Source of the DNA: an uncultured virus (IMG/VR IMGVR_UViG_3300025141_013938) | Taxonomy: Duplodnaviria > Heunggongvirae > Uroviricota > Caudoviricetes | DNA: 64,000 bases | Direction: 5' to 3' (one strand) | IMG/VR virus record: IMGVR_UViG_3300025141_013938 | Part shown: positions 5,778 to 42,065 of the stretch, piece by piece | Layout: each line of letters opens with the position of its first letter | Position numbering within the stretch: the stretch's first letter is position 1 | Notes under the pieces: model-generated | Database searches by the model: none | What the model was told of the DNA's origin: nothing | What the model saw: the letters and a program-made list of their open reading frames with translations, nothing else | Position numbers and translations under genes: made by a program

Positions 5778-7700
5778 GTGTTCACTAGTCCATTTAACAC
5801 TAATGAGGTCTCTATTCCAGAGAACACTCAGATAGTTTTTGTATCTGACCTTTTTGTCGAGGATCTCCTCGGCGGAGCTGAGATGACCACTGAGGCCATC
5901 GTCAGTAGCTCACCATATAATGTCTTTAAATTGAGATCTAAGGATGTCAACATGAATACGCTTTCACAGGGACAGGGCTGCTACTGGATTTTTGGAAATT
6001 TTTCTGGAATGGACCAACGTCTGATTCCCACCGTCGTGGCTAACATGAAGTACTCTATAGTAGAGTATGACTATAAGTACTGTCAGCATAGGTCTACAGA
6101 AAAACATCTAGCAGTAGAAGGAGAGGCATGTAACTGTCACAATGAGAATCACGGAAAGATGATATCTGCATTTTATCACGCAGCTGACTCACTCTGGTGG
6201 ATGTCTGAGGGCCAGATGAAGAAGTATCACAGTGTTTTTCCGTTTCTAGCAAGAAATAAAAATACAGTTCTCTCATCTGTTTTTGACAATAGTTTTTTTG
6301 AAAAAATTGCATCGCTTTTTAGTAAAAATAATGAAAATAAAAATGATAAGTGGACAGTCATCGGGTCCACATCCTGGATAAAGGGAACAGATGATGCAGA
6401 GGCATACTGCAAGGAAAATGAGTTAGAATATGATGTCGTATGGAACTTACCCTATGACGATCTACTTGAGAGACTTTCCCTTTCAAAGGGTCTTGTATTT
6501 TTACCTAAGGGAGGTGACACGTGTCCTAGGACTGTCATCGAGGCAAAGCTCTTAGGGTGCGACCTAATTCTTAATGAAAATGTTCAACACTCAAAAGAGA
6601 CATGGTTCAACACACCTGACATAAAGGGGACACTTGATTATCTAATCAGCGCTAGAAAACGATTTTGGACGGGTGTGAGTGATGTCATAAATAAAGCACC
6701 AACAATAAGTGGGTACACAACTACAAAGGACTGCATAGATCAAAAGTATCCATTTGTATCATCTATAAGATCCCTGATAGGGTTCTGTGACCAAGTCGTC
6801 GTCGTAGATGGTGGTTCAACAGATGGAACGTGGGAACGCCTTCTAGAGCTGCGAGAGACCTATCCAGAGCTGATTATACATCAACAGGGCAGGGACTGGG
6901 AGGAAAAAAGATTCGCAGTATTCGATGGGCTTCAAAAGGCTCTAGCAAGGACACTTTGCACAGGCGAGCTCTGCTGGCAACAGGACTCTGATGAAGTGGT
7001 TCATGAGGAAGACTATAAAAAAATTAAAAATTTAGCGAAGACTCTGACAAAAAATATAGATCTCGTTGCACTTCCAGTTATTGAATTCTGGGGCGGTCCT
7101 GAAAAAATTAGAGTGGACATAAATCCCTGGAAGTGGAGGCTCAGTAGAAATAGACCTCACATAACACACGGTATTCCTGCAGAGCTAAGAAAGTTTGATG
7201 ATGAAGGAAGGCTTTACTCTAGCCCAGGATCAGATGGATGTGATTACATAAGAAGTGACACCTTTGAAAGAATTCCATTTGCAGGATTTTATACAGAGGA
7301 TGCACATAAGAATAGAGAGCTAGCACTCGCAGGTGACAATGATGCTCTAGAGAGATATAAGGCATGGTTCGAAGAAATTGCAAATAATCTCCCATCTGTT
7401 TATCACTATTCATGGTTTGATATAGATAGAAAGATAAAGACATATAAGAACTATTGGTCAAGACACTGGCAGAGCCTATATGATATAGAGCAAGAAGACA
7501 CAGCTGAAAATAATATGTTCTTTAATAAGCCGTGGAAGGATGTCACAGAACTAGATATAGAGAGCTTGTCTAAAAGATTATCAGATGATATGGGTGGATG
7601 GATTTTTCACCAAAAGATAGACTTTGACAAAAAAACACCCTATATAAGATGCGCTACTAAAAACCACCCAGAGATAATAAAAGAGTGGATCAAAAAGTGA
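5778..7700 (+). CDS. Two-domain glycosyltransferase (GT-B/GT4-like N-terminus fused to GT2-like C-terminus)
   Basis: N-terminal half has GGAEMT and DTCPRTVIEAKLLGC (GT4-like E-x7-E region). C-terminal half has VVVVDGGSTDGT and QQDSDE (GT2 DxD). Confidence 0.8.
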   Translation: MFTSPFNTNEVSIPENTQIVFVSDLFVEDLLGGAEMTTEAIVSSSPYNVFKLRSKDVNMNTLSQGQGCYWIFGNFSGMDQRLIPTVVANMKYSIVEYDYKYCQHRSTEKHLAVEGEACNCHNENHGKMISAFYHAADSLWWMSEGQMKKYHSVFPFLARNKNTVLSSVFDNSFFEKIASLFSKNNENKNDKWTVIGSTSWIKGTDDAEAYCKENELEYDVVWNLPYDDLLERLSLSKGLVFLPKGGDTCPRTVIEAKLLGCDLILNENVQHSKETWFNTPDIKGTLDYLISARKRFWTGVSDVINKAPTISGYTTTKDCIDQKYPFVSSIRSLIGFCDQVVVVDGGSTDGTWERLLELRETYPELIIHQQGRDWEEKRFAVFDGLQKALARTLCTGELCWQQDSDEVVHEEDYKKIKNLAKTLTKNIDLVALPVIEFWGGPEKIRVDINPWKWRLSRNRPHITHGIPAELRKFDDEGRLYSSPGSDGCDYIRSDTFERIPFAGFYTEDAHKNRELALAGDNDALERYKAWFEEIANNLPSVYHYSWFDIDRKIKTYKNYWSRHWQSLYDIEQEDTAENNMFFNKPWKDVTELDIESLSKRLSDDMGGWIFHQKIDFDKKTPYIRCATKNHPEIIKEWIKK

Positions 7701-8401
7701 AAGTGATTTTTATAGTTCCTTGCTTCAATGCTGAGAAAAATCTAGATAACTTATTTAAGTCCTTAATCTCTCAAGATGAAGAGGACTGGGTGTGTATTCT
7801 TATAGATGATATGTCAGAGGATCACACGGCCAAAAAAATAATAGAGCTCTCTAGAAATGATAAAAGGTTTCACTGTCACATAAATAGAAGTAAAAAATTT
7901 GCATTAAGAAATATTGTTGAAACATCAAGGCTGTTTCAAGGTATGAGTGATGTTATAATTGCTGTCATCGATGGCGATGATCAACTTTGTAATAATAAGA
8001 CAATCAGCTTATTAAAGACCGAATATGAAAATGGTAAAGACGTCGTATGGACAGCCCACAGATGGGATATTAATGAATTAAATATATCAAAAGAGATGCC
8101 TATGAATGTAGATCCATATTCGTGGCCGTGGTGTTCATCACACCTAAGAACATTTTCTTCGACATTGCTTTCTCGCATATCTGATATAAACTTTAAAGAT
8201 ACACTTGGTAATTGGTTTAAAAGAGGGTATGATCAAGCACTTATGCTTCCCATTTTAAGCCTGACAAAAAATAGAGCGTATATAGATGAGGTTTGTTACA
8301 GGTATAATATAAACTCTGTCTCAATTAAAGATAGATCATGGGAAGAGAAGGGACAGATTTCTACGATCAATACAGTTAGAGCTAGAGGATTTTTAGAATA
8401 G
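7685..8401 (+). CDS. Family 2 glycosyltransferase
   Basis: FIVPCFNAE, LIDDMSED and IDGDD motifs. The real start may be GTG 7697 (GTGA overlap). Confidence 0.85.
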   Translation: MDQKVKVIFIVPCFNAEKNLDNLFKSLISQDEEDWVCILIDDMSEDHTAKKIIELSRNDKRFHCHINRSKKFALRNIVETSRLFQGMSDVIIAVIDGDDQLCNNKTISLLKTEYENGKDVVWTAHRWDINELNISKEMPMNVDPYSWPWCSSHLRTFSSTLLSRISDINFKDTLGNWFKRGYDQALMLPILSLTKNRAYIDEVCYRYNINSVSIKDRSWEEKGQISTINTVRARGFLE

Positions 8402-8417
8402 ATGGCCAGGAGTTCAA

Positions 8418-9332
8418 GTGAGAATATTTCTTGATAATGTAAACCTAGAGTCAACCTCAGGGCCTAATAGCTTTGCAAAGAAGATATCAGGTGAATTAAG
8501 AAAAGAACATGAGGTGTACACTTCAATTAATGACCTAATAGATGAAAAGAAAAGACCCGAGGTTCAACTGTCTTTTATATCTTCTAACTATCAATTAGCA
8601 CCCATTGTTCAAAGGCTAGACGGAATATACTTTAACTCTGAGCAAGCCTTCAATGAATTAAACCTCCCAATCGAGGCAACATATCAGACAGCTAGTGCAG
8701 TAATCTTTCAGTCAGATTTCAATAAAAAATTAACTGAAAAATATTTTGGAAAGAAAGAAAATTCTTTTGTAATCAGAAATGGTACATCATTAAAAAAAAT
8801 ATCTGATGCTCCAGAGATAAATCATCCCGTAATTGATGATTTTGAAGATGTTTGGATGTGTGCATCATCTTGGCGTCCCCACAAGCGACTACAAGAAAAT
8901 ATTAACTATTTTTTGGAATATTCCAAAAAAAAAGACTGTCTAATCATTGCAGGAGAAAATCCAGACGTCAGAGTTGCTGATCCCAGAGTTTTCTATGCTG
9001 GACATCTTTCTTGGATTGACATGATATCATTAATGAAGAGATCATCCTATTTTTTACATTTAGCGTGGCTTGATCATTGTCCAAATGTTGTAGTAGATGC
9101 AAGAGCAGCAGGATGTCACATCATCTGTTCTTCAACAGGGGGAACTAAAGAGATAGCTGGATTAAGGTCTACTATAATTCTTGAAGATGACTGGGATTAT
9201 TCACCAGTAAGACTATATGAGCCACCCAAGATGAACTTTAATCAAAAAATAGAAAATACTTTTGAGTCTGATATCGAAATTAAAAATGTTACACAAGAAT
9301 ATATCAGCGTATTTGAGAGTGTTAAGCTATGA
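8418..9332 (+). CDS. Family 4 (GT-B) glycosyltransferase
   Basis: N-terminal SGPNSF, WRPHKR, and DHCPNVVVDARAAGCHIICSSTGGTKE. Confidence 0.8.
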   Translation: MRIFLDNVNLESTSGPNSFAKKISGELRKEHEVYTSINDLIDEKKRPEVQLSFISSNYQLAPIVQRLDGIYFNSEQAFNELNLPIEATYQTASAVIFQSDFNKKLTEKYFGKKENSFVIRNGTSLKKISDAPEINHPVIDDFEDVWMCASSWRPHKRLQENINYFLEYSKKKDCLIIAGENPDVRVADPRVFYAGHLSWIDMISLMKRSSYFLHLAWLDHCPNVVVDARAAGCHIICSSTGGTKEIAGLRSTIILEDDWDYSPVRLYEPPKMNFNQKIENTFESDIEIKNVTQEYISVFESVKL

Positions 9333-10372
9333 GATTTTTAATCACTGGAGCTGGTGGACTTATCGGAAGTGAAGCAGCTAGATATTTTTTAAAAAATAAT
9401 CTTGTCTGGGGAATTGATAATAATATGAGGGCCCAATTTTTTGGACCACAAGGAGATGTTACACCAGCAATAGACTCTCTAAATAATCTAGATGGATACA
9501 CTCATTTCTGGGCAGACATAACAAAAGAGGATCAGATAGAAGATATTTTTAGAAAGATCATGCCAGATGTCATTATTCATTGCGCAGCCCAGCCCTCACA
9601 TGATAAAGCTGCATCAATTCCACTATTAGATTTTGATGTGAATGCCAGAGGAACAATTCTTTTATTAGAGTCATTTAGAAAATATTGCAAAGAAGACTCA
9701 GTCTTTATACACATGAGTACAAATAAGGTTTATGGAGATGGACCAAATCATCTTTCTCTAGTAGAGCTAGAAAATAGATGGGAATATACTGATCCAGAGC
9801 TATTTGGTATCGGAATATCAGAAACATTTTCAATTGATAGGTGCTTACATTCCTTATTTGGAGCTTCAAAGGTGTCTGCAGATATTATTGCACAAGAATA
9901 TGGTAGATATTTTGGATTAAATGTAGGGATATTTAGAGGAGGATGTCTTACAGGTCCGCAGCACGCTGGCGTAGAGCTACACGGATTTTTGTCCTATATC
10001 ATCAAGTGTGCATTAAACAAAAAACATTATACAATATTTGGATATGGTGGAAAACAGGTGAGAGATCAAATTCACTCATTTGATGTGATAAGGGCTTTTG
10101 AATCTTTTATTCAGCACCCTAAAAAGGGAGAAGTCTATAATATCGGCGGAGGATATGAAAATAGTGCATCAGTTATTGAGATTATAGAGATTCTAAGAGA
10201 GAGATATGGGCTAGTTTTAAATTATTCACTTGATGATAAAAATAGAATAGGGGATCATATTTGCTATTACACTGATTTATCAAAATTTAAAAAAGATTTC
10301 ACTTCTTGGAATATATCTAGATCCCTAGATGATATAATTAATGAAATTATATCTAATGAAAGTCAAGGATAA
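9329..10372 (+). CDS. NAD-dependent sugar epimerase, CDP-paratose 2-epimerase (RfbE/tyvelose epimerase)-like
   Basis: GAGGLIG, HCAAQPS, STNKVYG, SLFGASK, QEYGRYFG and GKQVRD motifs of this extended-SDR subfamily. Confidence 0.75.
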   Translation: MRFLITGAGGLIGSEAARYFLKNNLVWGIDNNMRAQFFGPQGDVTPAIDSLNNLDGYTHFWADITKEDQIEDIFRKIMPDVIIHCAAQPSHDKAASIPLLDFDVNARGTILLLESFRKYCKEDSVFIHMSTNKVYGDGPNHLSLVELENRWEYTDPELFGIGISETFSIDRCLHSLFGASKVSADIIAQEYGRYFGLNVGIFRGGCLTGPQHAGVELHGFLSYIIKCALNKKHYTIFGYGGKQVRDQIHSFDVIRAFESFIQHPKKGEVYNIGGGYENSASVIEIIEILRERYGLVLNYSLDDKNRIGDHICYYTDLSKFKKDFTSWNISRSLDDIINEIISNESQG

Positions 10373-10377
10373 CACTA

Positions 10378-11298
10378 ATGGGAATAGAAGATATTAACAA
10401 AAATATTAATGAATTTCCTATTATTTTTAAAGATCAAGAACTTTACATCAAAGATACACGCGTCACTTCTGTCATTAATCAAATAATTTGTAGTGGGCAA
10501 CGACTAGATACTTCGACACTAAGTGATAACCAGCTAAAATTAATACGATCAGTTGAGAACTCTGTAAATAATGCTGAAATATTTAGGTCCAAATTGAATG
10601 ATGATATTTTAAATATGAGAGGAGTGACTTCAACATCTCGTAAGATTAGACATTTTTTAAATAATATCTGCGAACTATCTCCAGATTATTTAGAAGTTGG
10701 ATGTGCATCAGGATCTACATATATTTCTTCACACTATTTAAATAATATGAATTCCTCCTATGTGTGTGATTTATTTGCTGAATCTAAAAATGGAGAAAAT
10801 GGAAAGGATACTTTTTTAAATAATTGTCAAAAATATCTTGAAAAGGATCCAGAAAATTTATTTTCTGAAGATTGTTTTTCCCTTGATTTGTCAAAAATAT
10901 CCAATAAAATAAATCTCTATTTATATGACGCTAGACACAATGTAGATGATCAAGAAAAAGCTTTGACATATTTTGAAGAAGTTTTTGATGATGACGTTAT
11001 CTTTATAGTTGATGACTGGAATGATAGCAGGGTCAAGATAGGAACAGTCTTGGGACTGGCAAAGATAGGTTATGATATCATATGGTGGAATAGCCCTCCA
11101 GCTCATAGTCAAATTACATATCTATTTAAAAATATATTTGCACAAAGGGGACAAGTGAAATTTAGTAAGGATGATCCCTTTGGAGATGAATTTAGGTGGC
11201 ACAACGGATTGATGATAATGATTCTATCCAAGAGGAAAAAAAATAAGGATGGTCTTGAAGATAATGAACAATATATTGATGAATGGCTGGAGGGCTAG
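10378..11298 (+). CDS. Class I SAM-dependent methyltransferase (Methyltransf_24-like)
   Basis: YLEVGCASGST, YLYDARH, FIVDDWN. Confidence 0.7.
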   Translation: MGIEDINKNINEFPIIFKDQELYIKDTRVTSVINQIICSGQRLDTSTLSDNQLKLIRSVENSVNNAEIFRSKLNDDILNMRGVTSTSRKIRHFLNNICELSPDYLEVGCASGSTYISSHYLNNMNSSYVCDLFAESKNGENGKDTFLNNCQKYLEKDPENLFSEDCFSLDLSKISNKINLYLYDARHNVDDQEKALTYFEEVFDDDVIFIVDDWNDSRVKIGTVLGLAKIGYDIIWWNSPPAHSQITYLFKNIFAQRGQVKFSKDDPFGDEFRWHNGLMIMILSKRKKNKDGLEDNEQYIDEWLEG

Positions 11299-11300
11299 CA

Positions 11301-12326
11301 GTGAGTAATTTACCTAAAGTCACATTTGGAATAGTAAACTGTAATAGACTGTATTATTTAAAGAGCTGCTTAGAATCTCTAATTTTTTGTACGAAGAGCT
11401 ACGAAAACAAAGAGCTAATAGTTGTCGATAATGCGTCAATAGAAGAAGGAACCTCTGAATACCTAGATGAAATAGAAAAAAATGGAATAATCGTCGTACG
11501 GCAAAAGAAGAGAGATCCTAGTAATGAATTTGCAAAGGCACTTAACATAATATCAGAGATAGCAACAGGAGAGTATATCTGCCCACTACAGGGGGATATG
11601 CAATTTATAGTTAGAGGACCGTGGCTTGAAGAATATGTCAGATATTTTCAAAAACATGGAAATAATATAGGATGTATTTCTCTAGATGCTCAAAGAAAAA
11701 TCACAATTCGTAGGCGTTCACCATATGGAGTTTTTGACAAAGATGAGCTAGATAACCACTTTAGATTTTTTATAGAGCCAAAAAGACCCCCAATAAGCGG
11801 CGCAGCTGATGTGATGTATAGTAAAGAAATAATAAAGAAAATATATCCGTGGAATGTTAACAATTCAAGCCATGAGGGCGGTGATGATTCAGAAACTGCT
11901 ATGCTTAAAAAAATTGAAGACTTAGTTAGATCCAGTGACTTAAAGGATGTTTTCTTCATATCTCCACAAATTCCTGTTTCAGTTGCAATTCAAACTGACA
12001 GCCGAGGAACTAATGCAAGAGTTAGAGGGACTAAAAGATATGGAGACTATTGGCCAGCAAAAAAAGACTTTAGGTATTATGAGATATTTGAAATAGAAGA
12101 TCTCATTTCTAGCTGTGATAAAAATAGTCCTCCACTGGCAATAGACGATCTTGCCAAGGGGGTCGAGTGGAATGTTCCTAAAGACGAACTTGGAAATTGG
12201 CTAAAAAATCCAATTCAACCAGAAAGTGCATCTATTAATGACTATGTTGACTTAGAAATATCTAATAAGCCCCCAGAAGATTCTTTGTCTCCAGACTACT
12301 TGTCTGAATGGTTAGATGATGAGTAA
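11301..12326 (+). CDS. Family 2 glycosyltransferase
   Basis: PKVTFGIVNCNRL..LKSCLESL and ELIVVDNAS. Start moved to the in-frame GTG 11301, which has GGAGG 7 nt upstream. Confidence 0.75.
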   Translation: MSNLPKVTFGIVNCNRLYYLKSCLESLIFCTKSYENKELIVVDNASIEEGTSEYLDEIEKNGIIVVRQKKRDPSNEFAKALNIISEIATGEYICPLQGDMQFIVRGPWLEEYVRYFQKHGNNIGCISLDAQRKITIRRRSPYGVFDKDELDNHFRFFIEPKRPPISGAADVMYSKEIIKKIYPWNVNNSSHEGGDDSETAMLKKIEDLVRSSDLKDVFFISPQIPVSVAIQTDSRGTNARVRGTKRYGDYWPAKKDFRYYEIFEIEDLISSCDKNSPPLAIDDLAKGVEWNVPKDELGNWLKNPIQPESASINDYVDLEISNKPPEDSLSPDYLSEWLDDE

Positions 12327-13236
12327 GATTTTTGTACTGCCTCCTAGAGAAAGCTGGATATGTGATAGAATTTCAGCTGAGTGGTATGAAAATTGTCAAG
12401 ATATTTCAACAAAAAATATCATAGATGCAGACATAATATGGCTATTAGCAGGCTGGTGCTGGAAGCAAGTTAATTTAGAGCTTTTAAAGACAAAAAGAGT
12501 TGTTGTCACAATTCATCATATTGTTCCAGAAAAGTTTACGCAAGAAAAATTTAATGACTTTATGTTAAGAGATAAGTTTGTTGATCTTTATCACGTGCCC
12601 AATGATAAAGCCTACAAGGCTGTCTCTAGATTAACACAAAAACCAATTAAGGTAGTAGGCTACTGGTTTGATAAAAAAAAGTGGTTTCATGAAGAAAGGA
12701 GCACTTGTAGGGATAGGCTTGGGTTATCAAATAATGATTTCATAGTTGGATCATTTCAAAGAGATACAGAGGGATCTGACCTAATAACACCAAAGCTTGA
12801 AAAAGGTCCAGATCAGTTTTGTGATTATGTTGGAAACATGCAAAGAGATAATTTACATGTTCTCCTCGGCGGATGGCGACGACAATATGTGATATCTAGA
12901 CTAGAAAAAATGAAAATACCCTACACCTATTTTGAACTTGCAAACCTTGAAACTTTGCGTTTAATGTACTGTTCTCTAGACTTATATGCAATATCATCTA
13001 GATACGAGGGAGGCCCACAGTCAGCTCTAGAGGCCTCTGGAATGCACATCCCTATAGTATCTACAGATGTGGGTATGGTACCAGATATACTTCACAAAGA
13101 TTGTATATTTGAAAAATTAGATTCTAATTTCTATCCAAGTAAAAATCATGTAGAGTTCAACTTTGAACAAGCAATGAAATTTGAGATATTATTACATAAA
13201 GAAAGATATATTGAAATGTTTAAGGGAATATTGTGA
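12316..13236 (+). CDS. Family 4 (GT-B) glycosyltransferase
   Basis: EKGPD and SSRYEGGPQSALEAS..PIVSTDVG. Confidence 0.8.
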   Translation: MMSKIFVLPPRESWICDRISAEWYENCQDISTKNIIDADIIWLLAGWCWKQVNLELLKTKRVVVTIHHIVPEKFTQEKFNDFMLRDKFVDLYHVPNDKAYKAVSRLTQKPIKVVGYWFDKKKWFHEERSTCRDRLGLSNNDFIVGSFQRDTEGSDLITPKLEKGPDQFCDYVGNMQRDNLHVLLGGWRRQYVISRLEKMKIPYTYFELANLETLRLMYCSLDLYAISSRYEGGPQSALEASGMHIPIVSTDVGMVPDILHKDCIFEKLDSNFYPSKNHVEFNFEQAMKFEILLHKERYIEMFKGIL

Positions 13237-14216: not shown

Positions 14217-14260
14217 TCACTTTATTTAAATGTGTGATATGAAATACGAGGGAGTTTTTA

Positions 14261-16491: not shown

Positions 16492-16503
16492 AAGAGCTTT
16501 GTA

Positions 16504-25893: not shown

Positions 25894-25896
25894 AGT

Positions 25897-34513: not shown

Positions 34514-34537
34514 TGTATGCGCTGTATTTGATATAAT
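34509..34537 (+). promoter_or_regulatory. Sigma70-like promoter (extended -10)
   Basis: TGTAAT-N17-TATAAT with TGn before the -10 element. Confidence 0.55.
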
Positions 34538-34564
34538 TAATATATTCATATTTAAGACCTTAAA

Positions 34565-35587
34565 ATGACTCATTCACCTATTAAAAATTCCAAAATTCTT
34601 ATATTTGGGGGAACCGGCTCTCTTGGAAAGGTTCTCATCAAGAAATATATTGATAATAATTCTGTATGTGTGTATTCTAGAGATGAGTCTAAGCATTGGA
34701 CCATAAGAAATGAGATGTCGCATGATAATCTATCATTTATCATAGGTGACATAAGAGATAAACAGAGATGTAAAGATGCGATACTTCAATTTAAGCCAAA
34801 ACACATAATATTGGCTTCTGCTCTCAAACATGTTGATGTTTGTGAGATATCTCCTGAAGAGAGTATAAAGACAAATATCGAAGGGATATCTAATGTTATA
34901 AGTGTTATCAAAGATAATTTTAGAATTTTAGAGAATTTAAAAACTGTCTTGATGGTGAGCACAGACAAGGCATGCTCTCCTATTAATGTATATGGAATGT
35001 GTAAATCAATTGCAGAAAGAGTTGTGACATCTGCTGCTGAGCTGTCTATTCCAGTAAAATTTATCGCAGTAAGATACGGAAATGTTCTAGAGTCTAGAGG
35101 GAGCATAATACCACTGTTTAAGTATCAATCAGAAAATTGTAACGAAATTACTGTTACAGATAGAAGAATGACACGATTCGTTATGACACTTGATGAGAGT
35201 GCTAGACTAATTGATGCAACGATACAAAATGGAGATTCGGGACAGACATGGGTGCCAAGGCTTCCTGCAATGAAAGTATTAGATCTAGCAGAAATATATT
35301 CAGAAATGTCAGGTAAGCCCATAAAGATAATTGGAATGCGCCCTGGTGAAAAGCTTCATGAAGACCTAATCAATATTTCTGAGTCGATGAGAACAAGACA
35401 GATTGAAAAATACTTTGCAATTAGCTCTTCTTTTACGACGCCTTTTCAAAGTGATGACTATGTTATGAAAAGTAATATGAACCTAATGACAAAAGAAGGG
35501 CTAAGAAATCACTTAGAGTCACTAGATATCTTGCACAAGCCTCTTTCACAATTTTTAGGAAAGTCTATTGAGGAGTTAAAAAAATAA
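34565..35587 (+). CDS. UDP-GlcNAc 4,6-dehydratase family (PseB/FnlA/CapD-like)
   Basis: GGTGSLG, SRDE, GDIRD, ALKHV, STDKA, YGMCK, RYGNVLESRGS, MTRF, RPGEKLHE. Confidence 0.9.
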   Translation: MTHSPIKNSKILIFGGTGSLGKVLIKKYIDNNSVCVYSRDESKHWTIRNEMSHDNLSFIIGDIRDKQRCKDAILQFKPKHIILASALKHVDVCEISPEESIKTNIEGISNVISVIKDNFRILENLKTVLMVSTDKACSPINVYGMCKSIAERVVTSAAELSIPVKFIAVRYGNVLESRGSIIPLFKYQSENCNEITVTDRRMTRFVMTLDESARLIDATIQNGDSGQTWVPRLPAMKVLDLAEIYSEMSGKPIKIIGMRPGEKLHEDLINISESMRTRQIEKYFAISSSFTTPFQSDDYVMKSNMNLMTKEGLRNHLESLDILHKPLSQFLGKSIEELKK

Positions 35588-35608
35588 AGCGGAAGTTATG
35601 GAATAATT

Positions 35609-36421
35609 GTGATGAAAATAATGATTGTTGGAAGCACGGGAATGCTTGGAAATGCCGTTGGTAGTTACTTTTTAAATAATTGTTTTGACGTAACACTAAC
35701 ATATAGAAAAGAAAATCTCAAATACGGTAAAAATAATATCAAATTTGATATTTTATATGATGACATCGAAAATCTATTTAGTGAACCGCATGATTATTAT
35801 ATTAATTGTGCAGGATCGATTAAGCAAAAAATCATCAAAGAGAACAAGGAAGACATATTAATTAACGCCATATTTCCGTGGAAGCTTTCAGAGATGTGTG
35901 AAAAATTTGGAAGCAGATTAATACACATAACAACTGACTGTGTTTTTTCAGGTCAAAATGGAAAATATATAGAAGAAGATATTCATGACTGTTTAGATTT
36001 TTATGGAAGGACTAAATCATTAGGAGAGCCAACAAACGCTATGGTGCTTAGGACAAGCATCATTGGTGAAGAGCTCGAGGGCAGTTCTAGCCTTATAGAA
36101 TGGGCAAAATCAAATTCTAGACAGAAGGTAAGGGGATTCACAAATCACATGTGGAATGGTATAACTACATCACAATATGCTAAAATTTGTCGAACTATCA
36201 TAGAAGACGATAGCTATCAAAAAAATAAGTTTCATATTTTTTCTCCAGGAGATGTTTCTAAGTATAGTTTATTGAAGATGATAAATAATAAATTTAATCT
36301 AGACTTAGATATTCAGCCCTTTAGAGCACAAACAAGTGTAGATAGAACACTTAGGTCAAATAAGAGTCTTGTTGAAAAATTAAAAATAGATCCAATAGAC
36401 ATTCAGTTAAGGGATTTTTAA
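35609..36421 (+). CDS. RmlD-like NDP-sugar reductase
   Basis: GSTGMLG, INCAG, HITTDCVFSG, YGRTKSLGE, RTSIIG. Confidence 0.85.
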   Translation: MMKIMIVGSTGMLGNAVGSYFLNNCFDVTLTYRKENLKYGKNNIKFDILYDDIENLFSEPHDYYINCAGSIKQKIIKENKEDILINAIFPWKLSEMCEKFGSRLIHITTDCVFSGQNGKYIEEDIHDCLDFYGRTKSLGEPTNAMVLRTSIIGEELEGSSSLIEWAKSNSRQKVRGFTNHMWNGITTSQYAKICRTIIEDDSYQKNKFHIFSPGDVSKYSLLKMINNKFNLDLDIQPFRAQTSVDRTLRSNKSLVEKLKIDPIDIQLRDF

Positions 36422-36472
36422 TAATGGCTAGAGGAAAGACGATAAATTGAATTTTTTATTGTGTGTGCATAA

Positions 36473-37108
36473 ATGATTAACAAGATTATAATTTCTCCTC
36501 ATGTAGATGATGAAGTTTTGGGCTGCGGGGGAGTAATTGATGATAAAACACTAGTTCTTCATTGCGGTCTAGCGAAGTTGCAGAATCATGGAAATAGTAT
36601 TTTTTCTAAAGAGGCGAGATTAAAAGAGTTTGAAAAAATTAAGATAGAGACTGGATGTAGTTCTATTCTTTTAGATAATGCTGTTAATCAATATTGTGCA
36701 GCTGACTTGATTTCTGACATAGAGAAAGTACTTAATGAGTATAAGCCTAGGACTGTGTTTATTCCAACACCATCATATAATCAAGACCACAAGGAGGTAT
36801 ACAAAGCGTCAATCATTGCATTAAGACCGCATGACATCAATTACTTTGTGTCGAGAGTATTGATGTATGAGCAACCTCAAGATTTGTGGGCAGGAGTGGA
36901 TGATCAATTCAATCCTAGCTTTTTTGTCAGGATTGATATTGATAGAAAGCTGAGACTCTATTCACTTCTTGAGTCTCAAGTTCGGGATCATAGAAGCATA
37001 GACCTCTTAAGGAATATTGCTGCTATAAGAGGAAGTCAATCATGCTGTGAATATGCAGAGGCATTTCAAGTAATAAGGTGGGTAGCATATTCAGGTGATG
37101 AGATATAA
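36473..37108 (+). CDS. PIG-L family deacetylase
   Basis: SPHVDDEVLGCGG, NQDH, YAEAF. Confidence 0.85.
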   Translation: MINKIIISPHVDDEVLGCGGVIDDKTLVLHCGLAKLQNHGNSIFSKEARLKEFEKIKIETGCSSILLDNAVNQYCAADLISDIEKVLNEYKPRTVFIPTPSYNQDHKEVYKASIIALRPHDINYFVSRVLMYEQPQDLWAGVDDQFNPSFFVRIDIDRKLRLYSLLESQVRDHRSIDLLRNIAAIRGSQSCCEYAEAFQVIRWVAYSGDEI

Positions 37109-37138
37109 ACATCAAAATAAGTAAGAATATAATAGAGC

Positions 37139-37924
37139 ATGAGATACAATAAAAGTATGAGGGGATGTATAGTAATTCCCGTTTTTTTTGGGTACAGATC
37201 AAGACGACCTGATAATCATTTTAAAAATATCGATAGCGTGGTAGAGCTGACAAAATATCTCATAGCGCATTATCGTCAATTAGATACAGGAATTCACACA
37301 GATATTATTTTTGTCAATAACTCACCCGATGAACCAATTGCAAATTCGTTATTTGCATCAATCAATAACACTCCTGTTATAAATGGCATATTTAAAGTGA
37401 TCGATGGTGACAATATTGGAATGTCATTTGGAGCCTATAACAAGGCATTCCAGGCATTTCAAAACGATTATGACATCTGGTGTTTTACAGAAGATGATAC
37501 AATTTATAGCTTGCCAAATTTTCTTAATGGTGTAATCAAACAGTTTGAAAGTGATTCATCTCTAGGCTTTGCAGCTCTAATTGGTGTCGGAAGTGAGAAT
37601 AATCTAAATTCGGCTCATTCTCATGGAGGCTGCGGCGTGACAACACGAGAAAAATTATCAGAGGTGTTCGATAAGCTGGGTGAGCTACCTCACGGTCATG
37701 AGATTCCCACTTTAGAGGCAGATAAATATGACCATGCACACTTTAAAAAAATTCACATGATCGGTGGTGAGGTTGCTTTTACTAATTGTTATTGTCAGCT
37801 AGGATATAAAATAGCCAAAATGAACTGTCCAGATAAGCCCTATACAAGATGGCATCACGATTATCAGGAATTAGACATCGAATCATGGGGCTCTTATAGC
37901 TATATAAAAAAGGTAATTTCATGA
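37139..37924 (+). CDS. Putative GT-A fold glycosyltransferase
   Basis: IVIPVF, IIFVNN, N.GMSFGAY, CFTEDD; located in the glycan cluster. Confidence 0.5.
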   Translation: MRYNKSMRGCIVIPVFFGYRSRRPDNHFKNIDSVVELTKYLIAHYRQLDTGIHTDIIFVNNSPDEPIANSLFASINNTPVINGIFKVIDGDNIGMSFGAYNKAFQAFQNDYDIWCFTEDDTIYSLPNFLNGVIKQFESDSSLGFAALIGVGSENNLNSAHSHGGCGVTTREKLSEVFDKLGELPHGHEIPTLEADKYDHAHFKKIHMIGGEVAFTNCYCQLGYKIAKMNCPDKPYTRWHHDYQELDIESWGSYSYIKKVIS

Positions 37925-38676
37925 AAAAGAAACATATATTTATTGGAGGACACCATAATAGTTGTACCACAATAGTACGTAAGCTCATTCTTTGCAAAGA
38001 TTACATGGAAGCCGATAGATATCCTGACTATATGGGAAAATATTTTCATAGTGAATTTTTTAAACGATGGCATGCTAAGAAAGATAATTTTGAATTTTTT
38101 GAAAATAAAGTTCGAAGAGACACAGGTGGCCTCGAATACTGGGTTATCAAGCACAACCACTTGATGTTGATGATACCTGAGCTTAAAAAGGCATTTCCAG
38201 GCTCAGTATTTATAATGTGTATCAGAAATCCAATTGATCAATTACGAAAACCACAAATGAATTATGAGTGGTACGGAAATGCTAGAAGTTGGGATCCACC
38301 GCTTGTAGAAAAATTTGGACTCTATGGGGAGTGGGTAGATGAGGGAATAAAAAATGCTGACCATATTATTCGACTTGAAGATCTCTTATTTGATACAAAA
38401 GATACAATTAAAAAGCTATATCAATTTTTAAAATGTGATGATAGAGTAGATGATGATATTTTACAAATGATTCTTCCTCCATCCTCAACTGTTTTAGATG
38501 GGCATAGACCCGCTAAGAGCACTGGGAGTGACCCATTAAGCATCCTAAAGGTCACTGAGGCAGAATTAGATAATTACATTATAGATTCGTCTGGGACAAT
38601 ACTGCGTGATGCACTCAAAGAGTATTGTATCCGTTTAGGCTATGATATGCCCGAATACTTGAAAAGAAAAAAATAA
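37921..38676 (+). CDS. Sulfotransferase-like P-loop protein
   Basis: IFIGGHHNSCTT (5'-PSB-like), IMCIRNPID (3'-PB-like), IRLEDLL..LYQFL. Confidence 0.6.
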   Translation: MKKKHIFIGGHHNSCTTIVRKLILCKDYMEADRYPDYMGKYFHSEFFKRWHAKKDNFEFFENKVRRDTGGLEYWVIKHNHLMLMIPELKKAFPGSVFIMCIRNPIDQLRKPQMNYEWYGNARSWDPPLVEKFGLYGEWVDEGIKNADHIIRLEDLLFDTKDTIKKLYQFLKCDDRVDDDILQMILPPSSTVLDGHRPAKSTGSDPLSILKVTEAELDNYIIDSSGTILRDALKEYCIRLGYDMPEYLKRKK

Positions 38677-38722: not shown

Positions 38723-39562
38723 ATGAGTAAAATAGAAAAAACTTTCCCAACAGGAAAGCAACATGTATCATTTTCTGAGATCAAATGCTGGAAAGAGTGC
38801 ACATGGCGACATAAGCTAGTTCATATAGACAAAGTTGATATTTTTGAGCCCTCTCCTTACTTAGATTTTGGAACTGCCGTTCACTCTGGATGTGAGGTCC
38901 TTTTAGAAAAGAATGATCTTGATTATGATAGCCTCTTAAAAGATATTGTGGATGCTTGGGATAAGCATGGGTTTGGAAAGCCAGAGTGGTATGAAAAAAT
39001 GCCTGGCTGGTACAAGCATGTTCCTGTAGAAGAGTGGTGTACATGGGCATCTAATATGTGGAGCGAGATTCCAAAATTTTTAGATGAGACGTTTCCAGGC
39101 TGGGAGTTTGTATCTGCTGAGGAAATGTTATATGAGCCTGTTGAAAATAAGGATATTAACTTCAAAGGATACATAGACGGGATTATAAGAGTTCCTAATA
39201 AAGCTGGCAATGGGTACAAGTACTGGATCATTGACTGGAAAACAGCGCAGTCTTATGGGTGGAGAAGGTCTAAAAAGCAAGATATTTTAATGACTGCACA
39301 GTTAATGCTATATAAGCACTTTTGGTCTAAGAAGCACTCTGTTGAACTTAAAGACATAAGATGTGGTTTTATATTATTAAAGCGCGGCGGTAAGCCAGGC
39401 AAGGTCTGTGAGCTTGTGACAGTATCTGTGGGACCTAAGTCTCTAGAAAAAGCCCTAAAGATAATGAATAATATGATAACATCTGTTAGAAGAAAAATGT
39501 TTCTAAAGAATAGAGATTCTTGCAGGTACTGTCAGTTTAAAGACACAGAACACTGTACGTAA
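38723..39562 (+). CDS. PD-(D/E)XK nuclease (RecB/Cas4-like exonuclease)
   Basis: SFSEIKCWKEC, FGTAVH, GYID, IIDWKT, QLMLY and C-terminal CRYC..C (Fe-S staple-type cysteines). Confidence 0.85.
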   Translation: MSKIEKTFPTGKQHVSFSEIKCWKECTWRHKLVHIDKVDIFEPSPYLDFGTAVHSGCEVLLEKNDLDYDSLLKDIVDAWDKHGFGKPEWYEKMPGWYKHVPVEEWCTWASNMWSEIPKFLDETFPGWEFVSAEEMLYEPVENKDINFKGYIDGIIRVPNKAGNGYKYWIIDWKTAQSYGWRRSKKQDILMTAQLMLYKHFWSKKHSVELKDIRCGFILLKRGGKPGKVCELVTVSVGPKSLEKALKIMNNMITSVRRKMFLKNRDSCRYCQFKDTEHCT

Positions 39563-39608: not shown

Positions 39609-40859
39609 ATGACCCAAAAGAAAAAAATTCTTGTTCTATCTGATCATGCACTATCAACTTCTGGAGTTGGCTGTCAGACAAGACACTTAATTAACGGACT
39701 GTTAAATAAAGATGGACACTGGACATTTCGACAGTTTGGTGCGGCTCTCAAGCACATAGATTATGAAACTGTTGTTGTCAATGAAGATTTTATCATCAAG
39801 CCCATTGATGGATTTGGAGATAGAAATCTTATAAGGATCACTTTAGCAGCTGAGAAGCCTGACATACTATTAATCTTCACTGATCCTAGATTTTTTATAT
39901 GGTTGTTTGAGATGGAAGACGAAATACACCAGATTTGTCCAATTGTTTGGTGGCATGTGTGGGATAACTATCCTTATCCAAAATTTAATGAATCTCTCTA
40001 TGAGGCAACTGACTCAATTAACTGTCACTCTCACCTGACATATGAAATGGTTAGCAACGTTTTTCCAGAAAAGACAAACTTCATACCTCACACACTGCCC
40101 GACGAGATCTTTCACCCCATCAGTGAAAAAGAGAAGAGAGAATTTAAGGGTAATGTTCTAGGTGAATCTAGAAAAGATCACTTCATTGCGTTTTGGGTTA
40201 ATAGAAATGCAAAGAGAAAAAGACCAAATGATGTACTTTTTTCGTGGAAGCTATTTTTAGACATGCTAGAAGAAAATCATGGGCATAGAAATGCAACACT
40301 TATAATGCACACTGATCCCTATGATCAAGAGGGCCCAAATCTAATCACAACAGCTGAGATGTTTAAAATACATGAAAATGTATTTTTCTCAACAGATAGA
40401 CTAGAATTTGAGAAAATGAATATACTTTACAATATATCAGATGTGACATTAAATGTGAGTTATGCTGAAGGATTTGGTCTTTCTACACTAGAATCAATGC
40501 AGTCTGGGACACCTATAATTGCTGTTAAAACAGGTGGGCTAACTAGGCAGGTCGTTGATCACAGAGACGGAACAGAAAACGGTGTAGCCCTAGATGTCGA
40601 GTGTAAGACACTTGTGGGTTCACAACAGGTGCCTTACATATATGAGGACTACTCACGTCCAGAAAGTATAGCAGGTGCTATTTTAAAGATCTATAATCTT
40701 TCTCCCGAAGAATCAATAAGTCTATCTAACAAAGTAAGAGAATATGCATTAAGTGAATTCTCTCACCAAGACATGATAGATAAGTGGCATGATACACTTT
40801 TAGATGTGTCTGATAATTGGGAGAAGAGATATAAAAGATGGGAATATTTTTCTCTATAA
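39609..40859 (+). CDS. Family 4 glycosyltransferase
   Basis: SGVG, NRNAKRK, EGFGLSTLESMQSGTPII. Confidence 0.88.
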   Translation: MTQKKKILVLSDHALSTSGVGCQTRHLINGLLNKDGHWTFRQFGAALKHIDYETVVVNEDFIIKPIDGFGDRNLIRITLAAEKPDILLIFTDPRFFIWLFEMEDEIHQICPIVWWHVWDNYPYPKFNESLYEATDSINCHSHLTYEMVSNVFPEKTNFIPHTLPDEIFHPISEKEKREFKGNVLGESRKDHFIAFWVNRNAKRKRPNDVLFSWKLFLDMLEENHGHRNATLIMHTDPYDQEGPNLITTAEMFKIHENVFFSTDRLEFEKMNILYNISDVTLNVSYAEGFGLSTLESMQSGTPIIAVKTGGLTRQVVDHRDGTENGVALDVECKTLVGSQQVPYIYEDYSRPESIAGAILKIYNLSPEESISLSNKVREYALSEFSHQDMIDKWHDTLLDVSDNWEKRYKRWEYFSL

Positions 40860-40877
40860 GAAGGGAGTTTTAAAAGA

Positions 40878-42065
40878 ATGATTGAAAATTCTTTTGTAGT
40901 AAAGAAAAAGGTAATAATCAGAGCTCCGCTGCTATCAATAAGTGGCTATGGAGTTCATTCAAGACAGATATTCAAGTGGCTTGAAACAAGAGATGACCTT
41001 GATGTTCGAACACAGATAGTCCAGTGGGGAAATACAAGCTGGATGATTAATTCAGAATTTGAATCAGGAGCCGTTGGTAAGATAATGAGCTTATCATCAA
41101 ATCATGATTCTCAGCCTGACATATCATTTCAGGTTCAGTTGCCTGACGAGTGGGATACTGAACTAGCAAAGCTCAATATAGGAATTTCTGCTGTTGTTGA
41201 AACTGATAGGTGTAACCCTGCATGGATAGAAAATATAAATAAGATGGATCACGTCATTGTTCCGTCTGAGCACATAAAAAATACTATTTTATCGACAGGA
41301 ACCGTCACAACACCGTTACACGTGATACCAGAGTGGTACATAGAAGAAATAGATAAAGACAGTGTAGCCGAATTAGACATAGAGGTTAGTACATCATTTA
41401 ACTTTATATCAATTGCTCAATTTACTGGAAATGATCCTGAAAATGATAGAAAAAATCTCTTCTATACAGTTAAGTGGTTTTGTGAGGCATTTAAAGGTGA
41501 CGAGGATGTGGGACTCATACTAAAAATAAATCACGGAAGAGGAACCACAATTGATAGACACATAACAAGAAATAAAATGAGACAGCTTGTGTCTGAGGTG
41601 AGGGATGGAGAATTTCCAAAGATTCATATAATCCACGGAAATTTATCATCTGAAGAGATGTCATCACTATACAGATTGCCAACTATCAAAGGCTTGATAA
41701 GTCTAACAAGAGGTGAGGGATTTGGCCTCCCTCTTCTTGAGGCAGCAGCGTCTGGAATTCCTGTCATCGCAACTAATTGGTCAGCTCATCTTGATTTTCT
41801 AAATCTTGGAAAATTTATACCTATTGACTATAGCATGGTAGAAATACCAGAGTCTCGAATTGATAATAGAATATTTTTAAAGGGCATGTGCTGGGCTGAG
41901 CCAATTGAGGCTGATTTTAAAAAGAAGATTATTAAGCTGAGACATAAGCATGACATACCAAAGCGCTGGGCACTAGATCTGTCTAGTCGAGTGAGAGATA
42001 TTTTTTGTTCAAAGTCTATAATTTCACAATATGACAGCATGATAAATGCCATCTTAGAAGATTAA
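40878..42065 (+). CDS. Family 4 glycosyltransferase
   Basis: SGYG, VPSEH, RKN, RGEGFGLPLLEAAASGIPVIATNWS. Confidence 0.88.
   Translation: MIENSFVVKKKVIIRAPLLSISGYGVHSRQIFKWLETRDDLDVRTQIVQWGNTSWMINSEFESGAVGKIMSLSSNHDSQPDISFQVQLPDEWDTELAKLNIGISAVVETDRCNPAWIENINKMDHVIVPSEHIKNTILSTGTVTTPLHVIPEWYIEEIDKDSVAELDIEVSTSFNFISIAQFTGNDPENDRKNLFYTVKWFCEAFKGDEDVGLILKINHGRGTTIDRHITRNKMRQLVSEVRDGEFPKIHIIHGNLSSEEMSSLYRLPTIKGLISLTRGEGFGLPLLEAAASGIPVIATNWSAHLDFLNLGKFIPIDYSMVEIPESRIDNRIFLKGMCWAEPIEADFKKKIIKLRHKHDIPKRWALDLSSRVRDIFCSKSIISQYDSMINAILED

Follow-up and report, generated by a model that had tools for sequence, protein, structure and literature searches.

A 36-kb sugar-gene island in a marine jumbo phage lineage, a candidate locus for virion glycosylation

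A block of sugar genes between fibre-like and baseplate genes

We analysed a 64,000-nucleotide stretch of DNA (the window) from an uncultured tailed virus, IMG/VR record IMGVR_UViG_3300025141_013938, which carries an island of sugar genes at positions 5778-42065. Fifty-four plus-strand open reading frames (ORFs) cover nearly the whole window, and every minus-strand ORF is nested inside one of them; all window genes named below are on the plus strand. The island spans 36 kb and holds 39 ORFs, which overlap or are separated by short gaps. Pfam families were matched at E ≤ 1e-3 by 35 of these 39 ORFs, 34 of them to nucleotide-sugar, glycosyltransferase (GT) or tailoring families and one to a PD-(D/E)XK nuclease (38723-39562; PF12705, E 1.1e-19), whereas the ORFs starting at 10378, 20712, 28443 and 37139 had no Pfam match at this threshold. 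A preliminary description of this DNA, made from the sequence without database searches, had placed a co-oriented sugar-gene block between fibre-like and baseplate genes, and the family assignments confirmed it.

Nine island ORFs carry a GT match in Pfam at E ≤ 1e-5. The first, here called GT640 (5778-7700; PF00535, E 6.6e-6), has two domains, a GT-B domain at about residues 15-307 and a GT-A/GT2 domain at about residues 305-612. It is followed by a soluble GT2 without a hydrophobic segment (7685-8401; PF00535, E 1.7e-14), a GT1/GT4-type enzyme (8418-9332; PF13692, E 4e-6), another GT2 (11283-12326; PF00535, E 7.3e-15) and another GT1/GT4-type enzyme (12316-13236; PF13692, E 2.5e-8). Further along are a GT29-type sialyltransferase-like protein of 197 amino acids (15898-16491; PF00777, E 6.8e-20), a GT4-like protein (21406-22311; PF13439, E 8.1e-6, below the Pfam cut-off) and, at the right end, two GT4s (39609-40859; PF00534, E 1.9e-12, and 40878-42065; PF00534, E 3.1e-8). 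Two other ORFs are only weakly GT2-like (28443-29276; PF00535, E 0.0025, and the ORF starting at 37139; GT2_5, E 0.016). The total is therefore 9-11 GT genes with 10-12 GT domains, and the earlier count of about 11 genes and 12 domains stands, with nine clear and two weak GTs by Pfam and GT640 two-domain by structure.

Routes to four classes of activated sugar could be traced with NCBIfam and Pfam. Two enzymes scored above their NCBIfam curated cut-offs, the GDP-mannose 4,6-dehydratase Gmd (13233-14216; TIGR01472, 426 bits versus 415) and the glucose-1-phosphate thymidylyltransferase RmlA (31929-32843; TIGR01207, 395 bits versus 361). Close or clear family matches below the equivalog cut-offs were an RmlB-like dTDP-glucose 4,6-dehydratase (27506-28441; TIGR01181, 339 bits, under 365), a PseB/FnlA-like UDP-GlcNAc 4,6-dehydratase (starting at 34565, in the block 34565-38676), a DegT/PseC-type sugar aminotransferase (18719-19900; PF01041, E 5e-74), a NeuB-family nonulosonic acid synthase (17850-18719; PF03102, E 2.1e-67; TIGR03569, 250 bits, under 400), a fusion of a CMP-sugar cytidylyltransferase with a SAM methyltransferase (16554-17792; PF02348, E 5.1e-8; PF13489, E 1.6e-11; PseF, E 1.8e-9) and a UGDH-like NDP-sugar dehydrogenase, which matches PF00984 and PF03721 only, its C-terminal domain missing (32791-33678; TIGR03026, E 1.3e-59). 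The dTDP route comprises RmlA, the RmlB-like protein, an FdtA-type 3,4-ketoisomerase (23901-24314; PF05523, E 1.5e-37), an NDP-hexose C-methyltransferase (22311-23492; PF08484, E 8.4e-46), reductases and aminotransferases; the UDP route the PseB/FnlA-like and UGDH-like ORFs; and the CMP route the NeuB-family ORF and the cytidylyltransferase. GDP-, dTDP-, UDP- and CMP-sugar routes proposed in the preliminary description were thus recovered, and the fifth, a CDP-sugar route, was not: there was no RfbF- or RfbH-level NCBIfam match among the window ORFs.

All four enzyme types of a nonulosonic acid pathway (dehydratase, aminotransferase, synthase and cytidylyltransferase) are present, each below its NCBIfam equivalog cut-off. 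The GT29-type ORF, which is of the animal-style family, adjoins the CMP-nonulosonic acid genes, and its best match among solved structures is mammalian ST3Gal-I (2wnb, E 5.2e-9). The Maf-type transferase family PF01973 had no match in the island, and the candidate nonulosonic acid transferase is instead the GT29-like protein.

The tailoring set is broad. It includes a NodU/CmcH-type carbamoyltransferase (14261-15901; PF16861, E 3.3e-61), the sugar C-methyltransferase and the FdtA-type isomerase mentioned above, a B12-binding radical-SAM methyltransferase of 690 amino acids (29273-31345; KedN5 family, E 1.4e-41), further methyltransferases (31342-31929, Methyltransf_24, PF13578, E 4.4e-16; and 33668-34513, a SAM methyltransferase by Pfam), a PIG-L deacetylase (starting at 36473), a sulfotransferase (37921-38676) and a P4H-type 2-oxoglutarate (2OG)-Fe(II) oxygenase (25234-25893; PF13640). 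Judged by sequence, these soluble phage enzymes should be able to make GDP-6-deoxyhexoses, dTDP-linked amino-, keto- and C-methyl-6-deoxyhexoses, CMP-nonulosonic acid and a uronic acid. The B12 radical-SAM enzyme, in a phage sugar island, would imply cobalamin-dependent C-methylation of sugars.

A lineage of probable T4-type jumbo phages

Relatives were sought through the gp6-like baseplate wedge protein on the right flank (46020-47879; phrog_219, E 5.9e-12). By tblastn, its full length was 31-33% identical (E 1e-77) to the annotated wedge gene of Flavobacterium phage immuto, to a gene of Microcystis phage Mel-JY01 and to a gene of a 484-kb uncultured phage. Genes like those at 42322, 46020 and 49471 stand in the same order in all three genomes, and counterparts of 43126, 45524 and 47882 were found in some of them. 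The genes of the right boundary (42066-43497) are syntenic in immuto, Mel-JY01, LR756508 and related loci. At the nucleotide level, megablast against 50,697 phage records gave no match for the baseplate module and only two short matches for the island.

Relatives of gp6 in the protein database numbered 1932 at E ≤ 1e-10, and the contigs that carry them reach 253 kb. A first search with the single gp6-like protein as query found no related viral loci; an alignment of 27 gp6 relatives retrieved 520 related stretches from IMG/VR, of which 80 loci were kept. A scan with GT640 retrieved 347 related stretches, of which 80 loci were likewise kept.

Two records stood out. The nearest, G001, is a 58-kb fragment rated 17% complete and without a terminase, and it was 100% identical over window bases 1-20000, the stretch compared. 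The other, G002, is 280,913 bp long and 92% complete according to CheckV; 280,000 bases of it were read. G002 repeats the window order: fibre-like genes, GT640 (53% identical), GT2, sugar genes, nuclease, GT4, GT4, sigma-like gene and baseplate genes. It carries Terminase_6N, Portal_T4, a gp21-type protease (Peptidase_S77), a Gp23 capsid protein, a sheath protein, a T4 baseplate protein, RecA, a DnaB-like helicase and ribonucleotide reductase, so that the terminase and capsid genes of a phage, for which the preliminary description had suggested looking, are found in a relative with the same layout. Judged by these genes of G002, the lineage is probably one of T4-type jumbo myoviruses.

The base composition of the window changes along its length, with GC falling from 0.47 in the fibre genes to 0.30-0.39 over the island. 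At third codon positions, GC (GC3) is nearly the same in the variable island (0.26) and the baseplate genes (0.28), and it is positions 1 and 2 that make the fibres GC-rich, a pattern to be expected of Gly/Ala-rich proteins; the drop is therefore no sign of a chimera. With junctions that recur in independent records, a layout repeated in G002 and a GC3 that matches the baseplate genes, the region proved to be phage DNA and not chimeric, in line with what had been supposed.

Four glycosyltransferase genes frame an interchangeable centre

To compare islands from the right side, window proteins were searched by tblastn on the 80 gp6 loci, 35 of which have at least 7 kb upstream of gp6. In all 35, both right-end GT4s (39609 and 40878) were found in the same order, just upstream of a small hydrophobic protein and the sigma-like gene, and the nuclease was present in 34 of 35. 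The first core GT4 was 54-75% identical across the 35 loci. Upstream of the nuclease the genes vary by locus and include UGDH-like, Gmd, RmlB-like, NeuB-like, RmlA and epimerase genes. On the left side, GT640 had 2470 homologues at E ≤ 1e-5, and the best 120 of these 2470 were 58-73% identical and nearly all about 640 amino acids long. Directly after GT640, a GT2 like that at 7685 followed in 57 of the 80 GT640 loci, which makes it a semi-core gene. Homologues of the GT1/GT4-type ORF 8418-9332 and of the GT4-like ORF 21406-22311 occurred in 36 and 20 of these 80 loci, respectively.

The length of the island differs widely among relatives. On the nine contigs common to both scans, GT640 and gp6 start 15.7, 17.9, 19.8, 21.1, 21.4, 22.6, 32.6, 34.3 and 35.2 kb apart. 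In three minimal loci this distance was about 12 kb, with an island of about 8 kb that consists of GT640, GT2, an epimerase, the nuclease, the UGDH-like gene and two GT4s. The 40.2 kb of the window is the largest distance seen. With a spacing of roughly 12-35.2 kb in relatives against 40.2 kb here, and with differing gene sets, the position is hypervariable between related genomes, a comparison that the preliminary description had called for. From this gene order, we describe the island as a fixed frame of four GT genes, GT640 and GT2 on the left and the two GT4s with the nuclease on the right, around an apparently interchangeable centre, of which the window holds an expanded version. Related loci, among them the minimal islands, retain the short UGDH-like form (N-terminal and central domains) in 16 of 80 and 13 of 80 cases, with identities of 40-75%.

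The right side of the frame reaches beyond the lineage. The nuclease-GT4-GT4 trio was found in the same order in the cultured phages immuto, whose host belongs to the Bacteroidota (NC_055915.1, 48008-59988, locus L181), and Mel-JY01, whose host is a cyanobacterium (PP395634.1, 81375-89690, locus L182), in both cases away from the baseplate genes. The core GT4 at 39609 is 32% identical to its immuto counterpart and 29-35% identical, over two pieces, to that of Mel-JY01; the GT4 at 40878 is 33% identical to both. In Mel-JY01 the trio lies near polymerase and clamp-loader genes, and in immuto a few kilobases past the polymerase and lysis genes. Further GT and methyltransferase genes follow it in both phages, with an aminotransferase and an epimerase in addition in immuto.

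In the ESM Atlas, the nearest named clusters were 70-100% viral for the core GT4 and the GT-A domain of GT640, with 87-100% for the core GT4 clusters. RmlA had a best identity of 58% among 185,579 species genomes. On these comparisons, the genes are best regarded as old viral genes and not as recent captures from a host polysaccharide locus. Two of the Atlas rows listed near the core GT4 belong to Nucleocytoviricota, which we note as a lead only. RmlA was also tried as an indicator of the host, and its best matches, at no more than 58% identity and scattered over many phyla, were uninformative.

No membrane assembly machinery was found

Loci for O-antigen or capsule depend on membrane machinery, and the preliminary description had recognised none in the cluster. 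Transmembrane segments were sought with a 19-residue Kyte-Doolittle hydropathy scan, a crude stand-in for TMHMM, and no protein with two or more hydrophobic segments was found anywhere in the window. Nor did any window protein match the Pfam families of Wzx, Wzy, phosphoglycosyltransferases (PGT), ABC exporters or oligosaccharyltransferases (OST), and among the 39 island ORFs there was no match at E ≤ 1e-3 to PF02397 or PF00953, the families of initiating transferases such as WbaP and WecA. We extended the survey to G002, in which 252 of 264 called proteins were scanned, namely those of at least 100 amino acids apart from 12 that cross the boundaries of the 20-kb pieces. None of the 252 matched a Wzx, Wzy, PGT, ABC or OST family. 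The sole long polytopic protein of G002 has 1472 amino acids, lies beside a T4-baseplate-like gene and matches no family; it may be a tape-measure-like protein. Several short G002 proteins have 2-4 hydrophobic segments (one is of the MgtC family), and none matches a glycan-export family. The claim that membrane assembly genes are lacking was thus upheld in the window, by Pfam and hydropathy, and in the scanned part of the 92%-complete relative.

Fold relatives of the two-domain glycosyltransferase

The AlphaFold2 model of GT640 had a mean predicted local distance difference test score (pLDDT) of 91.9, with an N-terminal GT-B domain that matched GT4 enzymes at Z of about 20 and a C-terminal GT-A part. 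Fold searches with the whole model returned lists filled by the GT-B domain and were uninformative on the acceptor. The GT-A domain was therefore modelled alone (pLDDT 94.0) and searched against 48,161 representative chains. Its nearest relative was SunS, a cytoplasmic peptide S-glycosyltransferase (Z 15.2, root-mean-square deviation 3.7, 216 residues aligned, 14% identity), and the next family was SpsA, at Z 12.5. Foldseek on GT640 likewise ranked SunS and ThuS at the top. On the predicted model, the closeness to SunS is a lead towards a peptide acceptor and no proof of one. A tblastn search of GT640 against deposited phages gave no match.

Promoter-like motifs are common to island and structural genes

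Three identical copies of a 12-mer, GATATAATTAAT, stand in the window, all of them on the plus strand (10331-10342, 34530-34541 and 45501-45512) and 12-47 nt before a start codon. It precedes the island ORFs 10378 and 34565 and the gp25-like gene of the baseplate module; when one mismatch was allowed, there were seven matches against 1.63 expected. The hexamer TATAAT was found 8-60 nt upstream of window starts 11 times, with 2.3 expected. Another motif, ATATTTAA, precedes 34565 (at 34548) and 43497 in the window and is the most enriched 8-mer upstream of G002 genes, several of them in the structural region. These patterns, with the G002 motif ATA[TC]TTAA, suggest that island and structural genes may share promoters.

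Candidate acceptors of the island's glycan

We tentatively favour, with somewhat less than even confidence, an acceptor that would be encoded by the phage and would not be DNA, most likely the virion proteins. The evidence leans towards a phage-supplied acceptor, as the frame GTs appear to be conserved like structural genes and the trio crosses host phyla; the presence of the trio in phages of two host phyla makes a host-specific lipid-linked primer a poor fit. As for DNA, virion DNA of immuto analysed by liquid chromatography with ultraviolet and tandem mass spectrometric detection (LC-UV-MS/MS) contained, according to the accessible part of the report, only dA, dC, dT and fdPreQ1, the last in place of dG (bioRxiv 10.1101/2023.04.13.536721). 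In a phage with the trio, then, no bulk glycosylation of DNA was observed.

If virion proteins are indeed the acceptor, the frame GTs would add the first sugars to a substrate supplied by the phage, and the variable centre would then build a strain-specific outer glycan. The modified protein would lie on the virion surface, most plausibly in the repeat-rich fibres encoded just upstream, and would receive its sugars in the cytoplasm, before or during assembly. Such a glycan coat would change adsorption or mask the particle. In its full form, which we put forward with added reserve, the proposal is that a widely distributed lineage of marine jumbo phages glycosylates protein in the cytoplasm with enzymes of its own. 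Its four frame GTs, which are virus-specific, would prime one of the virion proteins, with the repeat-rich fibres as the probable substrate. Up to about 30 genes, exchangeable as a cassette, would go on to make the outer glycan, which in the window would contain nonulosonic acid as well as C-methyl, carbamoyl and sulfo groups, and phages of Flavobacterium and Microcystis would have the core in common with the lineage. The preliminary description had already suggested glycosylation of virion proteins in the cytoplasm. The phage origin of the DNA, the lack of membrane assembly genes among those scanned and the hypervariable position support that suggestion, but the missing Wzx, Wzy and PGT does not exclude a role for host machinery.

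Several considerations weigh against virion proteins as acceptor. Immuto is only a 32% identical relative, and its DNA assay would miss rare or digestion-resistant modifications. Adjacency is the sole ground for naming the fibres. The GT4 pair stands beside a nuclease and the trio lies near replication genes in immuto and Mel-JY01, which could point to DNA. The SunS match of the modelled GT-A domain, with 14% identity, exceeds generic GT2 enzymes by only 2.7 Z units, and likeness of fold shows no function. An envelope glycan could be completed by the undecaprenyl phosphate (Und-P), flippase and ligase of the host, in which case the phage would need no membrane gene of its own, and sulfo- and carbamoyltransferases are typical of secreted glycans. 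Finally, the authors of comparable islands, in the text available to us, favour roles at the host surface (PMC7029224, PMC12801897).

The strongest alternative, which we consider possible and on balance unlikely, builds on this last point. Soluble phage GTs would extend a host undecaprenyl-phosphate- or other lipid-linked primer at the inner face of the membrane, and the host flippase, polymerase and ligase would export the product; the altered O-antigen, capsule or protein O-glycans would block superinfection or keep progeny from sticking to debris. As far as the accessible text shows, the printed reading for the GT-rich host recognition cluster (HRC) of pelagimyophages is modification of the host O-chain (PMC7029224), and for the 'cell wall' genes of cyanomyovirus S-SCSM2R roles at the host surface or on DNA are given (PMC12801897). 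The enzyme families of the island are those of O-antigen and capsule loci, its sulfation and carbamoylation would suit a glycan that leaves the cell, and a variable centre would fit the tracking of host serotypes. The GT2 at 7685 even matches phrog_841, 'GtrB-like O-antigen conversion', at E 9.5e-11, although by hydropathy it lacks the membrane helices of GtrB. The window, however, holds no initiating transferase, flippase, polymerase, ligase or polytopic protein that we could find, and no glycan-export family was matched among the 252 G002 proteins. The frame GTs, moreover, are virus-specific and remain 54-75% identical throughout the lineage, although its islands vary in other respects, and a trio common to phages of bacteroidotal and cyanobacterial hosts is hard to square with a host-specific lipid-linked acceptor.

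Less probable still is a soluble or non-virion acceptor of another kind, such as a free or secreted oligo- or polysaccharide, a small molecule, or non-structural proteins of phage or host. Relatives of the GT4s by sequence or structure include BshA, MshA, sucrose-phosphate synthase and trehalose synthase, which use small acceptors, and among the structures matched by the whole GT640 model are bifunctional polymerases, namely K4CP, heparosan synthase and exostosins, but such structural matches are generic for GT-B and GT-A folds. The UGDH-like gene and sulfotransferases recur in relatives, yet a polymer needs export, and no exporter was found in the window or in the 252 scanned G002 proteins. 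Nothing indicates a particular small acceptor.

We regard hypermodification of DNA as quite improbable. The trio, and perhaps the whole island, would glycosylate modified bases as a protection against restriction, and the nuclease would attack unmodified DNA. Phage GTs are described, in the part of the source available to us, as placing mono- to trisaccharides on 5-hydroxymethylcytosine (5hmC), with some clusters beside structural genes (bioRxiv 10.1101/2023.12.21.572611). Three features would agree: the GT4 pair adjoins the PD-(D/E)XK nuclease in 34 of the 35 loci with at least 7 kb upstream of gp6; the trio is near polymerase and clamp-loader genes in Mel-JY01 and past the polymerase in immuto; and there are weak matches to PF20706 'GT4-conflict' (E 1.7e-5, below the cut-off). 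Set against them, the island has no match to PF00303, PF00145 or PF12851 (hydroxymethylase, cytosine methyltransferase and TET/JBP), its only oxygenase being of P4H type (PF13640), and the virion DNA of immuto, in the accessible part of its report, has the four nucleosides given above and no other. Multiple sugar routes and about 11 GTs far exceed what the trisaccharides known on DNA would call for, and a separate G002 cluster (Thymidylat_synt, Glf, GT, epimerase and MT-A70) is a better candidate for DNA modification. That the window is a cellular contig, or joins a bacterial polysaccharide locus to phage DNA in a chimera, is scarcely credible: the GC drop from 0.47 to 0.30-0.39 across the island would fit, but 51 of 80 loci have fibre homologues on the upstream side of GT640, the GT4 pair is beside sigma and baseplate genes in 35 of 35, G001 is identical over bases 1-20000, the 92%-complete G002 repeats the layout, and GC3 matches the baseplate genes.

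Comparison with known systems

Giant viruses encode their own pathways for rare sugars of bacterial type together with GTs, in variable clade-specific clusters, and make the glycans of their virion fibrils in the cytoplasm. Those clusters belong to eukaryotic nucleocytoviruses, whereas the present island belongs to a tailed phage. Among phages, in work that Freeman and colleagues reportedly published in Cell Host Microbe in 2023, soluble GTs of mycobacteriophages are said to glycosylate capsid and tail-tube proteins without export machinery; these mycobacteriophages reportedly have few GTs and no sugar-synthesis pathways. Their virion glycans were shown by experiment, whereas this island is known from its genes alone.

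Marine phages offer the closest parallels in gene content. The HRC of pelagimyophages and cyanomyophages is, by the text available, hypervariable and contains tail-fibre genes, many GTs and lipopolysaccharide (LPS)-like sugar genes, with a mean of 44.6 kb in pelagimyophages (Zaragoza-Solas et al. 2020, PMC7029224). Like it, the island lies among fibre and baseplate genes, is variable in content and size and is of similar length, and function is unproven in both. It differs in that the nearest cultured phages by tblastn are immuto and Mel-JY01 (31-33% for gp6) and not pelagimyophages or cyanomyophages, and in that the sugar genes are contiguous, in a single block with four fixed frame GTs, one of which is a GT-B+GT-A fusion; the accessible text on the HRC mentions no such frame (PMC7029224). 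Cyanomyovirus S-SCSM2R is reported, in the portion available, to have 22 'cell wall' genes with 13 GTs, perhaps the most in a marine phage according to its authors (PMC12801897). This marine phage, which is of T4 type, likewise has many GTs and nucleotide-sugar genes, together with GT10/GT11 and epimerases. As far as that portion goes, its 22 genes have scattered ORF numbers, whereas here 34 sugar or tailoring ORFs stand in one 36-kb block, and the nonulosonic acid, the dTDP-amino and C-methyl sugars and the carbamoyl and sulfo groups distinguish the routes of the island from those of S-SCSM2R. The 'moraphages', with which the lineage might be identical, are described, in the available text, as jumbo phages with four core GT orthogroups, Bacteroidota hosts and PolB, and as lying outside the T4 group (PMC12619734); G002, by contrast, has T4-type portal and capsid genes.

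Three further kinds of locus are similar in part. In DNA glycosylation clusters, as the source is accessible to us, the GTs are related to LPS and teichoic-acid enzymes and some clusters lie beside structural genes, but they need a cytosine methyltransferase and 5mYOX/TET and attach up to three sugars (bioRxiv 10.1101/2023.12.21.572611); neither enzyme was found in the island. The island resembles an O-antigen or capsule locus in its co-oriented block of nucleotide-sugar and GT genes, but an initiating transferase, flippase, polymerase, chain-length regulator and ABC exporter were not found. Its likeness to a nonulosonic acid island of flagellin type is less certain, as the four enzyme types are present with scores below their cut-offs and Maf (PF01973) was not found.

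Sugar islands at the fibre position are therefore already in print. What is new here is the size, 34 sugar or tailoring ORFs in 36 kb, and the layout of frame and variable centre with its GT-B+GT-A fusion; new as well are the trio as a link to cultured phages of two host phyla and the use of published mass spectrometry of DNA to narrow the acceptor. A literature search, which mostly did not extend to subscription journals, found no description of this lineage's island and no glycoproteomics of immuto or Mel-JY01.

Should the glycan prove to be on the virion, open-ocean tailed phages would carry a variable sugar coat made from up to a tenth of the genome, with effects on adsorption, host range, grazing, aggregation and the stickiness of particles at sea. 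An abundant marine lineage would then join giant viruses and mycobacteriophages in virus-autonomous glycosylation. The island would correspond, in a phage, to the glycosylation of giant-virus fibrils and would serve as a 'serotype' locus for the particle. Whatever the acceptor, the layout of conserved frame and variable centre provides a handle for sorting such islands, and the island is a source of soluble rare-sugar enzymes, such as the GT29-type transferase, the B12 radical-SAM methylase and the GT-B+GT-A fusion. Since immuto and Mel-JY01 are in culture and carry the core trio, the acceptor is already open to experiment.

Flanking genes, remaining island genes and further observations

Two large ORFs rich in Gly, Ser and Thr precede the island, one of 1152 amino acids whose 5' end is cut by the window (2-3460) and one of 750 amino acids (3460-5712). 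They have a repeated FFVSGS...FGGD unit in common, in five and four copies, and neither matched a Pfam or PHROG family. The first is 32% identical over 296 amino acids to a G002 ORF (g30255-33884). For the second, tblastn against phages gave no match, though the low-complexity filter may hide it. Homologues of the first were found upstream of GT640 in 51 of 80 loci, and of the second in 35 of 80. Their putative identity as fibres is drawn from synteny. The second ORF also contains a PEPPPPPPPPD run, and its eight prolines, together with the P4H-type oxygenase of the island (25234-25893), bring to mind a link through glycosylation of hydroxyproline, which is pure speculation.

Between the second GT4 and the sigma-like gene lies a conserved protein of 110 amino acids (42066-42398) with one N-terminal hydrophobic helix, present in 41 of 80 related loci. 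The TTG start listed for the sigma-like ORF (42322-43116) overlaps it and may be called too far upstream. The module continues with a conserved 123-amino-acid protein (43126-43497, by synteny), a 572-amino-acid protein (43497-45215), a gp25-like ORF (45524-46015), the gp6-like gene and a further ORF assigned by synteny (47882-49462). The labels sigma-like (PF04542, E 0.085) and gp25-like (PF04965, E 0.0011) are weak and come mainly from synteny; among solved structures, a sequence search gave no identification for the former and, for the latter, only a contractile-injection baseplate protein at E 0.055. The 572-amino-acid ORF had been labelled 'gp5', a label that was not confirmed: it had no Pfam, PHROG, solved-structure or phage tblastn match. 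Its position is conserved across the lineage, with identities of only 26-42%. Downstream are a 1200-amino-acid ORF with Laminin_G_3 (49471-53073, by Pfam and synteny) and further large structural or fibre-like ORFs (53082-63813), among them one of 1449 amino acids with Laminin_G_3 (54005-58354); a match to phrog_8510 (E 3e-9) was found in this group. Homologues of three of the five ORFs past 53082 (54005, 59786 and 61066) stand in the same order in G002.

The remaining island ORFs are distributed along its length. An NDP-sugar epimerase/dehydratase of SDR type (9329-10372; PF01370, E 2.2e-36) is followed by a protein with a weak methyltransferase-like match (10378-11298; PF13578, E 0.0039; phrog_1458, of unknown function, E 1.8e-14). 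After the PseC-type aminotransferase come an SDR oxidoreductase (19897-20718; PF13561, E 1.3e-38), a small HAD-like protein (20712-21044; phrog_1238, E 4.5e-25) and a cupin (21028-21402; PF07883, E 4.3e-9), whose G002 homologue matches PF01050; an RmlC/FdtA-like cupin (23464-23904; PF00908, E 4.9e-8) overlaps the end of the C-methyltransferase gene. By Pfam, the block 24350-28441 also encodes an NDP-sugar epimerase/reductase (starting at 24350), a short RmlD-like reductase (starting at 25897) and a short DegT-family aminotransferase (starting at 26613), and an RmlD-like reductase starts at 35609 in the block 34565-38676 (Pfam/NCBIfam).

In G002 (loci L095, L098 and L099), a second sugar cluster at about 162-168 kb lies beside a thymidylate-synthase homologue and consists of Thymidylat_synt, UDP-galactopyranose mutase, a GT, an epimerase and an MT-A70 methylase. 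Since ThyX is also present in the genome, this cluster may be a DNA-modification module. G002 further carries an APS kinase, four sulfotransferases, and GT10 and GT11 fucosyltransferases.

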